A DNA stretch of 32,000 nucleotides from Acaryochloris thomasi RCC1774 (lineage in GTDB: Bacteria > Cyanobacteriota > Cyanobacteriia > Thermosynechococcales > Thermosynechococcaceae). Position numbers and translations under genes: made by a program. This document shows positions 15,018 through 19,327 of the stretch, one piece after another. The notes under the pieces are model-generated. The model saw only the letters and a list, made by a program, of their open reading frames with translations. It searched no databases and was not told where the DNA came from. The stretch covers positions 90,001 through 122,000 of the forward strand of contig NZ_PQWO01000006.1 in NCBI RefSeq assembly GCF_003231495.1, written 5' to 3'. The number at the start of each line of letters is the position of its first letter. The stretch's first letter is position 1.

Positions 15018-15503
15018 ATGTTGGCTCTGAAGAGAGGCTACAGCATGACCTCGCTAGTTATACCAAAGTTTGAGGCCAAGCAAGTGGGGCAAGTCATTGC
15101 CACAATCAAGGTTGCAAACCGGATTGATCAAGTTATGGCTGAGCGAGGGTTTATCTCTACAGCCGAGGTTCGTTCATTCGTTTTGAATGATGTTCTGGTC
15201 GATACTGGAGCGACATTGCTCGGCCTACCAACCCCCGTTATTGAATCACTGGGACTCGTTCGGGGTAGCTCTACTGGTGTTGAAACAACCGCCGGAATTC
15301 AGCAGGGTTGGATTTTTCGAGATGTTGATCTAGAAATTTCAGGTCGTCGAGGAACCTTTGATTGTCTAGAACTCACAAATGTTAACTATGCTCTTTTGGG
15401 TGTTACGCCGATGGAAATTTTGGGATTGGAGCCAGATTTCCAAAACCAGAAGCTGCGAGTGTTGCCGATGACTTCTGAGCAGACTTACCTCAGTGTTCTG
15501 TAG
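15018..15503 (+). CDS. Clan AA (retropepsin-like) aspartic protease
   Basis: Active-site motif VLVDTGATLLGLP within a protein of about 150 aa, typical of bacterial retropepsin-like proteins. An alternative start is at ATG 15045. Confidence 0.7.
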   Translation: MLALKRGYSMTSLVIPKFEAKQVGQVIATIKVANRIDQVMAERGFISTAEVRSFVLNDVLVDTGATLLGLPTPVIESLGLVRGSSTGVETTAGIQQGWIFRDVDLEISGRRGTFDCLELTNVNYALLGVTPMEILGLEPDFQNQKLRVLPMTSEQTYLSVL

Positions 15504-15506
15504 GTA

Positions 15507-15944
15507 ATGTCTCTTGTTTTCACGCGACGGCTATCGGCTAGAGAACGTAAGGCTGATTTAGTCCTGTCGCTCACGGCAGAAGAGCGGATGCGATCGCGTT
15601 TTCCCTTTGCAACAGATGACGGAACTCAACTCCACCTCCAGCTCCCTAGGGGAACCGTGTTGAGAGATGGCGATCTACTAGAAGCTGAGGCAGACGGAAC
15701 TGTGCTGCAGATTTTGGCTAAGTCTGAATCAGTTTTGGTTGTCCGAGCCAATAGTCCTCATGAATTACTACAGGCTGCCTATCATTTAGGGAACCGGCAT
15801 GTCGCCCTTGAAATTACTCCCACCTGCCTACGGCTGTTACCCGACCCGGTTCTACAGAAGATGTTGAACCGGCTGCAGCTAGATGTCACGCTAGAGAATC
15901 GTCCCTTTCAGCCAGAGACCGGAGCCTACAGCCATCATCATTAG
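15507..15944 (+). CDS. ureE: Urease accessory (nickel metallochaperone) protein UreE
   Basis: Conserved AAYHLGNRHVALEI motif and a His-rich C-terminus (YSHHH). Starts 4 nt after the protease gene. Confidence 0.85.
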   Translation: MSLVFTRRLSARERKADLVLSLTAEERMRSRFPFATDDGTQLHLQLPRGTVLRDGDLLEAEADGTVLQILAKSESVLVVRANSPHELLQAAYHLGNRHVALEITPTCLRLLPDPVLQKMLNRLQLDVTLENRPFQPETGAYSHHH

Positions 15945-16349
15945 CAGCGATGGTGCAACAAAATGGGCACTCTATAAATATCCCTAGAACACCAACTTTC
16001 ATCAAGCCTTCTTGGCTTGTGGCTGAGGCTCAGCTGTATATGGACTGCGGCCCTCTGCATAGGTCAATGAACCACCCTGGCCTAAGCGACTCAATCAGCC
16101 TTCACCTACGACAATTCAGTCCAATAGCGAGACCGCTCCTGCTTCTCCGTTAAGAGATGCGGGTCGATTAAAGACGCCTCTTCACGGGATGTTGAAGAAT
16201 CTGATGACTCAGGTCATAGATGCCTAAGTCAAAGTGCATTCGCTGGTCAAAATAGCAATATCCGGCTGAGTTAGGACAACCTTACCGTGAGTGAGTTTTA
16301 GCCACTTTCGTGCCCTAATCAATCCGTATGTCGCTGTATACATAGACCT

Positions 16350-18350
16350 GTGCTGTCGTCAGAGTCAAACACTATGGATATTTTTGTGAACGTCATTAGC
16401 AGTGCACAGTCAATACCAGCTGATCGTATCGAATATGGATATCTACCGACATATATACAAGATATTCAGCGAGCTTGGCGACTGGCGGAACAGCCGTATG
16501 ATAAAGATCCCAAGGGTGCCGTTGACGTAGCTCCTATTCCGGGTTGTGAGAAGCCAGCAGCTATTGCACTTCAGGTTCGATATGCCGCAACCCTCTCAGT
16601 CCTCAATAGCCTTGTTAGTCAAATTCCTGCGCCATTGATAGCAGCTCTCGTGACTCAGCGAATCTGGACATTAGAGCAAGCCTGGACTCTCATGGAGCAT
16701 TCTTCACCAAGAAAGCAGGTGGAGATTTTCGAATGCTTAGTAAATCATCTATCTGATGCTGAACAACACCCGGCACTGGCTGCTGTTCTGTCCGTTCATG
16801 ACGAATCGGCACGCGCTCGTATGTTGAGTTTGCTAGCCCCGGTTCTGTCTGAAGCACTGTTGATCCAAGTATTAGAACACCTAGGGGAGCTGACATCGGA
16901 GCACTACCGTTCTCTGGTCCTCTGTCGTCTGAGCTGCTATCTCCCTTCTAGTCTTGTTCCACGGGTTATTAATCTCACCTATGAGATTAATAACCCGATT
17001 GACCGGCTGACTGTGTTGAGTTGTTGGGTACAGCGCCAAATATCACTGTTGCCTAAGATCTTCGCTGCTCTGAAGTTGATTCAAGAACCTCAGGTCTTGA
17101 GTCAGGTCCTCGCGACTATTGCTCCCCATCTGCCTGCTCACTTCGTACCTATCGCTATTCAGATGGCTCGAAGCGTTGATGAGCCAGAGGAGCGGTATGA
17201 CATTCTAAGCGCACTAGCCATCCATCATTCACCTTTGCAATCTGAAGTGCTAGAGCTGTCTAGCTATCTGGAAGATGAGTTCACACTCGCCAATTCTCTT
17301 GCGAGCCTAGCGGCTGACGGTGCTTTTGAGACCAGTGAGGAGATATTAACGAGGATCAGTCAGATTGAAAATGAAGCCGCTCGAACCCTGGGCTTGAGCC
17401 TGGTTGCCCCACACCTGGCAAACGTGATTATGGCCGAGCTATTACAGGAGATACAGCGCCTGCAATCTGAACACCATCGCGTCCAGGTTTTCAAGAACAT
17501 TCCTCTGTCAGCCTCGATTATCCCGCAGGTGCTGCAAATGACTGCAGGTTTCAAGAATGCTGGAGCGCTTGCTACAGCTCTCAGTACTCTGGTGCCGGTT
17601 AAGCCCACCCTCATGCCAGAAGCACTGCAGGCAGCTCAACAGATTGAAGATTTACGCGTTCGAGCTAATGTCCTTGGGGAGATCGCGATTCATCAACCGA
17701 CCCTCTGGCCCACTGTCTTGGATGCCATTCGACAAATCCCTAGTGAGTTATCACGTGCGACAGTACTTCGACATCTGGCTCCCCACTTACCAGAGCTATC
17801 TATGGCATCTGCGCTCGATCTAGTTGCTGAAATATCAGAGTTGCCTGTGCGCGGTCAAGCTCTTAGCGGCTTGGCGATGTATCTACCCCAGCATCTCTTG
17901 GGGAGAGCGCTGACTCATGTTCTGGAGATTCCAGATTTGTCGGTCTTCGCTTCGATTGCACAACAGTTTGAGCCGACTCAAGTCGTGGCCCATCGCTGTA
18001 TCGATAGAGTTTCTGTGCTTAATGCATTAGCCTCCTATGTACCTGAAGAACTGCTAACGGAAAACGTTCAGATAACTGAGCAGATTGACGATCCAAAACT
18101 CCGTGCCCAAGCTTTAAGTGGACTACTGCCCCAACTCAATCTGAAACCAATCGATGCTGCTAAGCTAAGTGAGCGGCTGCACTGTCTAGCCTCTCGCTGC
18201 CACCAAGATTTCTTGGCGGATCTATTGAGGTTGGGACCAGCAATCGCCCATCTTGGTGGACCTGAGTGTTTATCGGAAATTGCTCAGCATCTGCAAACCC
18301 TAGAATCTCAGTGGGTGCAACGTTCTCTCTTGAGGCCTCAATTAAAATAA
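16350..18350 (+). CDS. Helical tandem-repeat protein (about 14-15 units of about 31 aa, R-x-x-x-L-x-x-L-A-P-h-L-P type); function unknown
   Basis: Recurring units include ARARMLSLLAPVLSEALL, SQVLATIAPHLPAHFV, ARTLGLSLVAPHLANVI, RATVLRHLAPHLPELSM, RGQALSGLAMYLPQHLL, RVSVLNALASYVPEELL and RAQALSGLLPQLN. The track start is GTG 16350. ATG 16374 (MDIFVNV) is more likely. Confidence 0.75.
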   Translation: MLSSESNTMDIFVNVISSAQSIPADRIEYGYLPTYIQDIQRAWRLAEQPYDKDPKGAVDVAPIPGCEKPAAIALQVRYAATLSVLNSLVSQIPAPLIAALVTQRIWTLEQAWTLMEHSSPRKQVEIFECLVNHLSDAEQHPALAAVLSVHDESARARMLSLLAPVLSEALLIQVLEHLGELTSEHYRSLVLCRLSCYLPSSLVPRVINLTYEINNPIDRLTVLSCWVQRQISLLPKIFAALKLIQEPQVLSQVLATIAPHLPAHFVPIAIQMARSVDEPEERYDILSALAIHHSPLQSEVLELSSYLEDEFTLANSLASLAADGAFETSEEILTRISQIENEAARTLGLSLVAPHLANVIMAELLQEIQRLQSEHHRVQVFKNIPLSASIIPQVLQMTAGFKNAGALATALSTLVPVKPTLMPEALQAAQQIEDLRVRANVLGEIAIHQPTLWPTVLDAIRQIPSELSRATVLRHLAPHLPELSMASALDLVAEISELPVRGQALSGLAMYLPQHLLGRALTHVLEIPDLSVFASIAQQFEPTQVVAHRCIDRVSVLNALASYVPEELLTENVQITEQIDDPKLRAQALSGLLPQLNLKPIDAAKLSERLHCLASRCHQDFLADLLRLGPAIAHLGGPECLSEIAQHLQTLESQWVQRSLLRPQLK

Positions 18351-19327
18351 GTCTTATACTTTTTGTAGAGCTTAAGGCCAGGAATCGGCTGCTTAAAGGT
18401 CTTAGGGTAACGATACCTGCGGTCCATATATTCCTCTTGCAGGTGACGAATCGCTAGATAATTCTCGTACCATTGCTCAAGAAGAACGACAAGAGCCTGA
18501 AATTTTGGATAAGCTAACTTGTACTTTTCACTTAGGGCAGCGTACTGCAGTAAAATGCCGTAGGCTTTTGTACTGTGGAGAGTGGTCGGTAGCGCAATAA
18601 CCTGCGCCATTTTTTCAAAGGTCTCGTAGTTTGCGATAACTTCGCCATTCAAGTATGCGCGATCTAATAAATCAGTTCTCTGGAGCTGGTCAATAATGGC
18701 AGAGATTGTTCTCAATATAGAGAAATCGGTTAGCTGGTGCTGCTTGAATGAGCATAGCAGTTGAAAGCTGAGGGGATGGTTTGCAACAACTCTCAAGTGC
18801 TTGAAATAGGACTGTAAAGCTGTTTTGCCTTCAGACGTCCGCATTTGGGTGATTGTCTGGCCATATTGTTGCTGTACTGAATCGATAAATTCAATGGGCG
18901 ATAAATGGGCTGGATAAAGGGATTCAATAAACCGATAAAACTCGGACTGTTTAGTGCTGTGATGCCCAAATTCAATACTTTCAATGCCCAGGAAAGCAGT
19001 TTTCGCCTTGATCCCAGCCATTAATAGGTCGATATAGGCGTCTAAATTCTCATAACTCGAATTTCCTACAGCGAGATCTCGCTTCATGCGCACAAATGCA
19101 AGAAACTCTTGATTTCCGAATTTGTCTCGATCGATGGCGTTGGCTCGAACTAGCAATGCTTCAATATTTCTGAAATGCCGATCGTATAGGTGAATTGCAT
19201 TCTCTGGAACAGCTTCCTTCTGAAAGCTTTTGTAGAAGGCTGATATCTGTTCGACCATGCTTTGATTGCCAATGAGTGGCCGATTCCACCAAGGCTTTTT
19301 CTGCTTTAGGTTTTGTAAGACTGCCAT
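18338..19327 (-). CDS. Hypothetical protein (329 aa), A+T-rich gene
   Basis: Long uninterrupted ATG-initiated ORF, predicted all-helical, with no motif recognised. Its 3' end overlaps the convergent repeat-protein gene by 13 nt. Confidence 0.6.
   Translation of the reverse strand: MAVLQNLKQKKPWWNRPLIGNQSMVEQISAFYKSFQKEAVPENAIHLYDRHFRNIEALLVRANAIDRDKFGNQEFLAFVRMKRDLAVGNSSYENLDAYIDLLMAGIKAKTAFLGIESIEFGHHSTKQSEFYRFIESLYPAHLSPIEFIDSVQQQYGQTITQMRTSEGKTALQSYFKHLRVVANHPLSFQLLCSFKQHQLTDFSILRTISAIIDQLQRTDLLDRAYLNGEVIANYETFEKMAQVIALPTTLHSTKAYGILLQYAALSEKYKLAYPKFQALVVLLEQWYENYLAIRHLQEEYMDRRYRYPKTFKQPIPGLKLYKKYKTYFN

Follow-up and report, generated by a model that had tools for sequence, protein, structure and literature searches.

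A NOD-less descendant of a cyanobacterial STAND receptor, conserved as a convergent two-gene cassette with a small helical protein

STAND/NLR receptors (STAND being short for signal transduction ATPases that have numerous domains) are defined by a nucleotide-driven switch. What, then, is the nature of a gene that encodes the repeat sensor half of such a receptor and nothing else? The question is raised by an open reading frame (ORF) at positions 16350..18350 (+) of a window of 32,000 nucleotides from Acaryochloris thomasi RCC1774 (genome G000; contig NZ_PQWO01000006.1, positions 90,001 to 122,000), the product of which is named P0001. We show that P0001 descends from an NB-ARC-type STAND receptor of cyanobacteria, has lost the nucleotide-binding oligomerisation domain (NOD) and is, in this sense, 'headless': effector, P-loop NTPase and winged-helix (WH) relic are gone. 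Three genera of family f1, the family whose named metagenome-assembled genomes (MAGs) are Thermosynechococcaceae, have conserved it in a tight cassette with a small convergent gene, P329. The anatomy and the evolution of P0001 are clear, while what we propose for its function is a hypothesis.

A preliminary description of this stretch had reported an array of about 14-15 helical repeats that ends in a cap and lies behind some 140 N-terminal residues with no recognisable motif. Both the array and the cap are borne out by the present analysis; the statement on the N-terminal region was wrong, as residues 26-125 are the conserved post-winged-helix linker of STAND proteins. The gene and its surroundings upstream are composed as follows.

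16350..18350 (+): headless STAND-derived solenoid gene (P0001), 666 aa from the GTG at 16350
16425..16724 (+): post-winged-helix linker, residues 26-125, with the motifs YIxDIxRAWRLAE and LQxRYA...SQIPAPLIAALV...W
16803..18140 (+): HEAT-like alpha-solenoid, residues 152-597, made of about 14-15 degenerate repeats with two helices and about 31 aa each
18156..18329 (+): C-terminal helical cap ending ...QW, residues 603-660, with its homologue at the very C-terminus of full-length STAND proteins
15945..16349 (no strand): upstream intergenic region after ureE, 405 nt, with no NTPase remnant

Linker, repeats and cap cover the whole length of P0001, and the linker is its best-conserved part among orthologues. 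Alternative starts are present at ATG 16374 and GTG 16386, the latter of which lines up with the Met of the orthologues (N-termini 'M(N/S)VISS'). The repeats, with the family consensus RANALSALAPKLPELLPEALEAARGIQDESY, recur with a periodicity of about 31.6 aa, since lags of 32, 63 and 95 form a harmonic series (z of 4.6, 3.4 and 4.2) in a BLOSUM autocorrelation of residues 150-630. A repeat hidden Markov model (HMM) of 31 positions, trained on units of seven full-length STAND proteins with P0001 not included, gave P0001 a score of 86.3 bits, compared to a mean of -0.2 and a maximum of 5.9 bits for 200 shuffles, and placed 12 in-phase units (starts at 155, 190, 251, 282, 345, 408, 438, 469, 501, 553 and 585, and one in the cap). 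The AlphaFold2 model, built from a 12-sequence alignment, is all-helical (mean predicted local distance difference test, pLDDT, 81.6; predicted template modelling score, pTM, 0.74), with about 15 consecutive helix pairs predicted at residues 152-595 and a four-helix cap at 603-660. Two ORFs inside the solenoid gene, one of 84 aa at 17360-17614 (-) and one of 88 aa at 17557-17823 (+), are shadow frames. An antisense frame equivalent to such an internal ORF gives a weak match between genomes G013 and G020, and nothing marks these frames as genes.

When compared with known structures using Foldseek, the P0001 model matched the HEAT solenoids SF3B1, PP2A A subunit and importins, with 61 matches at E<=0.001 (probability 1.0, E down to 8.6e-6), although with TM-scores of just about 0.3. 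Despite this HEAT-like fold, neither HEAT, HEAT_2, HEAT_PBS nor Arm of Pfam matched the sequence at E<=1, and no family of Pfam, NCBIfam or PADLOC was matched at the sequence level. The searches revealed no enzymatic N-terminal domain, no effector domain (Pfam, PADLOC) and no NB-ARC, AAA_16 or NACHT domain at E<=1 (Pfam, NCBIfam). Besides, no NTPase or NOD remnant was found in the 405-nt spacer upstream of the gene (best blastx E-value 5.4), so that the earlier claim of an array with neither effector nor NTPase holds. A scan for promoters and terminators remained at or below shuffle expectation. The predicted fold of P0001 suggests a role as a protein-binding scaffold.

The origin of the array becomes apparent from its relatives. 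Five orthologues that likewise stand alone were retrieved in a near-length search (identity of 91% for P0002 and of 44-48% for P0003-P0006), together with weaker matches in NB-ARC, AAA_16, NACHT, TIR, trypsin and CHAT proteins. A search for longer proteins detected 137 relatives of 1167-3330 aa in cyanobacteria, Chloroflexota and actinomycetes, nearly all of them STAND NTPases bearing an effector (trypsin, caspase, TIR, CHAT, EAD11, PNP, metallophosphatase, Mrr or kinase). In over 100 NB-ARC, AAA_16 and NACHT STAND proteins, the C-terminal half consists of this repeat and cap; they are thus the usual C-terminal module of large effector-fused STAND proteins in cyanobacteria and actinobacteria, as stated in the preliminary description, and in Chloroflexota too. 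By BLASTP, P0001 aligns with P0039, P0040 and P0044 at E 2e-62 to 3e-63, with 29-32% identity over 86-95% of its length. Residues 6-125 map directly after the NB-ARC/winged-helix module in these proteins (from residue 430 in P0040, 575 in P0044 and 628 in P0039), and the cap maps onto the last approximately 50 residues, i.e., the extreme C-termini, of P0040 and P0044. A linker HMM was positive in 115 of the 161 proteins retrieved, in which the linker usually lies 450-800 residues away from the N-terminus, and P0001 begins only about 25 aa ahead of this linker. Considering that the linker follows the NB-ARC winged-helix module in these 115 relatives, we conclude that P0001 corresponds to everything that follows the NOD in a STAND protein, and that its array does not lie behind a head of other origin.

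The relatives of P0001 differ in how much of the head they retain. Orthologues of the type found in its congener G003 carry approximately 65 extra N-terminal residues, absent from P0001 and P0002. These, as well as the longer N-termini of the proteins from genus g11 (833 aa) and from MAG P01_E01_bin.42, are 37-51% identical to the WH and helical module of full STAND proteins (E 1e-41 to 1e-73), and marginal APAF1_C matches were obtained in six headless relatives. No P-loop domain was found in the G003-type, g11 or bin.42 proteins. The g11 and bin.42 proteins retain WH, helical module, linker and solenoid, that of G003 retains a helical tail, linker and solenoid, and P0001 has linker and solenoid alone, the winged-helix/ARC2 and helical module being deleted in both P0001 and P0002. 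A FastTree tree of the 95-aa linker suggested several independent losses of the head, a reading that we rejected because a single clade of the 12 genome-verified headless proteins is compatible with an approximately unbiased (AU) test on a 91-column marker (p-AU 0.864, the constrained tree being the more likely one); the head may have been lost once or several times. Metagenomic headless candidates that may be fragments or split genes were left out of this test (P0008, P0011, P0015, P0017, P0021, P0022, P0025, P0028, P0031, P0037 and P0115). MAG P01_E01_bin.42 (JBCCVR010000130, L046 1914-11782 (+)) harbors three tandem headless paralogues of 989, 1273 and 998 aa, each with a WH relic, linker and 18-22 repeats, directly 3' of obg and a Uma2-family nuclease gene; no NTPase was found with this trio.

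P0001 cannot work as a STAND protein because it has neither nucleotide switch nor effector. The missing part could in principle be supplied in trans, with the solenoid as a sensor that docks via its conserved linker onto a separately encoded, sensor-less NOD protein. Such a split receptor would be in line with the linker being the most conserved segment among orthologues and with the short NB-ARC/STAND proteins without repeat sensors encoded in G000, e.g., one of 548 aa with a helix-turn-helix (HTH)-like N-terminus and no C-terminal repeat sensor (G000:C4:245270-245902; locus L013 1069-2712 (+)). However, this 548-aa protein has its own HTH-like head and is just 27-29% identical to the NODs of STAND proteins with this repeat, and it was rejected as the NOD of the solenoid since no specific affinity was seen. 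No NTPase or NOD gene was found upstream of or adjacent to the solenoid gene at any locus examined, and P0001 has lost the WH relic, the part expected to pack onto a NOD. We regard a split receptor as very unlikely. G000 also encodes several more short STAND NTPases of 475-611 aa, one of them with NACHT and DUF1822.

A decoy, which had been considered in the preliminary description, or a dominant-negative regulator would titrate the ligand of a full-length STAND paralogue with the same repeat or form heteromers with it. A full-length STAND protein with this repeat occurs elsewhere in genome G012, but no other protein with linker, repeat or cap, and no full-length STAND protein with this repeat, was found in G000 or G003. 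The decoy idea is weakened by this result and is largely refuted for G000, as there is no STAND protein with this repeat there to regulate; of the explanations discussed here, we consider it the least likely. A decoupled sensor or adaptor, the other role proposed at that time, is still plausible.

The gene has been maintained over considerable divergence. A positional orthologue is present in G003, behind a 249-aa gene, metK, a protease-like gene and ureE; the products of these four genes are 77%, 94%, 82% and 70% identical between G000 and G003, respectively, and those of the solenoid gene just 48%. The solenoid ORF is intact with 650-870 codons in at least seven genomes (G000, G001, G003, G012, G013, G020 and G024), in addition to the three ORFs in bin.42, and its frame stays open despite divergence down to 22-48% identity. 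Between G003 and G001 (81.6% identity, dS 0.2-0.3), the ratio of nonsynonymous to synonymous substitution rates (dN/dS) of the solenoid gene was 0.31 by NG86 and 0.55 by YN00, with values of 0.11 (NG86) and 0.20 (YN00) for P329 and 0.02 for metK; the pair G000 and G003 was not used, as dS is saturated. The solenoid gene is under purifying selection, which is moderate but relaxed or partly diversifying.

A rival view is that of a truncated STAND gene that drifts to loss, with no function of its own. A solenoid that is 48% identical next to neighbors at 70-94%, a dN/dS above that of P329 and metK, the degeneration of the repeats and the progressive erosion of the N-terminus across lineages are all consistent with such decay. 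On the other hand, the long frames have remained intact in spite of the divergence, dN/dS lies clearly under 1 where dS is not saturated, and three genera have kept the partner gene as well as the tight arrangement of the pair. Since the gene is syntenic in a congener, intact across genomes and shows a dN/dS of 0.31-0.55, it is not a pseudogene, and we consider a decaying relic highly improbable. The retropepsin-like protease gene followed by ureE in the window (15018-15944 (+)) has the same order in G003 (L019 2551-3491 (+), 82% and 70% identity), and this pairing is therefore not confined to G000.

The repeats, too, set the headless proteins apart from active receptors. The identity between units is 32-41% in headless proteins and 52-82% in single full-length STAND proteins, including six outside the HMM training, which indicates that the headless arrays are no longer homogenised and that their units have diverged separately; in this sense, the repeats are 'frozen'. 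The repeat HMM detected no repeats in the headless proteins of genera g10 and g11.

Downstream, the solenoid gene converges with the gene of its putative partner.

18338..19327 (-): partner gene P329, in convergent orientation to the solenoid gene; its all-helical product has 329 aa and a conserved motif, KPWWNRPLIG, in the N-terminal part
18338..18350 (no strand): 13 nt in which the coding regions of the convergent genes overlap at their 3' ends

Solenoid gene and P329 lie side by side in convergent orientation in three genera of family f1, in the genomes G000, G001 (across a contig break), G012, G013, G020 and G024. The spacing of the 3' ends is -13 nt in G000, +25 in G013, +38 in G020 and -131 in G012. 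This last, apparent overlap of 131 nt (L036 7861-7991) far exceeds those in other genomes, and the last approximately 40 residues of the 871-aa solenoid protein of G012 may be a read-through extension. Among 41 relatives, the solenoid was matched in 9, P329 in 11 and both in 8, counts that are not independent as the genomes are related to each other. When the 14-20 kb around the pair were compared pairwise between G000, G012, G013 and G020, solenoid and P329 were essentially the sole common genes, even between two species of g11; the exceptions were one weak match of a flanking ORF and one shadow ORF. The two proteins also diverge in the same ratio in genera g1 and g11, P329 being 69-70% and the solenoid 48% identical.

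P329 itself has no match in Pfam, NCBIfam or PADLOC, and neither P0001 nor the g11 homologue was matched by a PADLOC family either. Its AlphaFold2 model is confident and all-helical (pLDDT 85.8), with no Foldseek match at E<=0.001, and VIA-align returned generic three-helix bundles alone (Z<=9.6 over about 86 residues). No structural relative was thus found for the predicted structure, and we do not claim a new fold. An assignment to DUF6339 was rejected, as the protein-atlas match of 0.75 is within noise. A foreign origin of the P329 gene, which is poorer in AT, was likewise rejected because its GC content at third codon positions (GC3) equals that of the solenoid gene. An exhaustive HMMER search of 1.84 billion proteins yielded only 223 cluster representatives for the P329 family, which fall into length classes of about 330, 420-600 and about 700 aa, and the family was present in 10 of the 301 sampled genomes of the class. 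Proteins of the approximately 700-aa class are Hanks-type Ser/Thr kinases with a P329 domain at the C-terminus. G000 encodes such a paralogue of 708 aa, with the P329 domain as its C-terminal half (G000:C1, locus L041 5138-7264 (-)), and open frames of 686-687 aa with the same build are present in G001 and G003. A word-based search for longer P329 proteins gave no match, although these kinase fusions exist.

We lean with moderate confidence towards P0001 being a headless STAND derivative that serves as a HEAT-like scaffold or adaptor together with P329. The protein keeps the post-NOD half of the receptor, i.e., the linker, about 15 HEAT-like two-helix repeats and the C-terminal cap. With the NTPase gone, there would be no nucleotide-driven oligomerising switch, and the solenoid would most likely bind proteins as a static scaffold or adaptor; as its constitutive or regulated ligand, we propose P329 or domains of the P329 type. 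In this way, the sensor of a former immune receptor may have found a new use in a module of two proteins, of which it would be one half.

Several observations weigh against this proposal. In G003, solenoid and P329 are on different contigs, with a transposase adjoining P329; since both genes are nevertheless intact there, adjacency is not essential. P329 occurs without a recognisable solenoid neighbor in four more distant cyanobacteria, and no P329 was found in the bin.42 genome, which has the headless trio. Because the genes are convergent, they are not co-transcribed. The higher dN/dS of the solenoid gene could also reflect relaxed constraint instead of adaptive change. Transposase genes adjoin unpaired copies of P329 in both G003 (Mutator family, L042 6822-8057 (-)) and G022 (IS66 family, L039 3240-4589 (+)), and they may explain the break-up of the cassette.

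A role in defence deserves separate consideration. In an NTPase-independent conflict module, the solenoid would sense a foreign protein, e.g., of a phage, and release or activate P329 as the effector, similar to Dsr1 but split over two genes. The ancestry in a conflict-system family, the fast evolution of the solenoid compared with its partner and neighbors, and the differing genomic contexts of the cassette even within a genus, which suggest mobility, are all compatible with this role. The same holds for the documented NTPase-less proteins that share an Avs sensor (PMC13581612 / PMC12803255) and for the weak, non-significant Foldseek rows linking P329 to helical pore formers of the ClyA type. 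However, neither protein is matched by PADLOC, and the flanks are of the housekeeping type (metK, ureE) with no defence island. The frozen repeats show no diversification by shuffling of units, P329 has no enzymatic or toxin signature and matches known folds only at the level of noise, and the way it is fused to the C-termini of kinases points to regulation. We consider a defence module unlikely.

Solenoid and P329 could also constitute an undescribed NTPase-independent two-protein sensing module derived from STAND proteins, in which the solenoid binds a ligand and signals via P329 or P329-type domains, including those of the Ser/Thr kinases. This would represent a new defence system or signalling route, and we put it forward as a doubtful but conceivable possibility. 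In the literature searched, no description was found of STAND derivatives that consist of the sensor only, lack an effector and have a partner dedicated to them. If such a module exists, it would imply that bacterial NLR sensors have been domesticated into nucleotide-free adaptors. More broadly, a sensor half that has persisted for a long time under selection without its switch is a natural experiment in the reuse of immune-receptor parts. The two-gene cassette offers a tractable handle on the ligands of the common, uncharacterised cyanobacterial sensors with 31-aa repeats, and provides a first context for P329, a rare family that also decorates Ser/Thr kinases.

The closest known systems are the cyanobacterial STAND conflict-system proteins of the AP-ATPase/NB-ARC (and AAA_16/NACHT) type that carry alpha-helical repeats at the C-terminus (Kaur et al. 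2020, PMC7159879). P0001 is homologous to such proteins (P0039, P0040 and P0044) across the post-NOD half, in linker, 31-aa repeat and cap, and its relatives still hold the WH and helical module. It differs from them in that it lacks both effector and P-loop NTPase, has a specific small gene as its partner, and contains about 15 degenerate, non-homogenised repeats, in contrast to the 20-26 near-identical repeats of the conflict proteins. The use of a STAND-type sensor module outside a STAND NTPase has a parallel in Dsr1 and other NTPase-less defence proteins, which share the TPR sensor of Avs7 (PMC13581612; preprint PMC12803255). Proteins of the Dsr1 type, however, keep a fused effector (SIR2, nuclease or kinase) and TPR repeats, whereas P0001 has no effector and repeats of another family.

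With the HEAT scaffolds PP2A A subunit PR65, SF3B1 and importin-beta, P0001 shares a predicted long superhelix of antiparallel helix pairs. Its low structural similarity to these proteins (TM-scores of about 0.3), the absence of a Pfam HEAT/ARM family in its sequence and its origin from a STAND sensor set it apart. P0001 does not belong to the curated HEAT families and, as the defining NTPase is absent, not to the STAND NTPases either. In plants and fungi, truncated NLR genes (e.g., of the TIR-only, TN and CN types) lack canonical domains and yet persist, usually keeping the N-terminal or NOD part. P0001 is likewise a persisting receptor derivative without canonical domains, but it is bacterial, keeps the C-terminal sensor half and has a dedicated partner gene.

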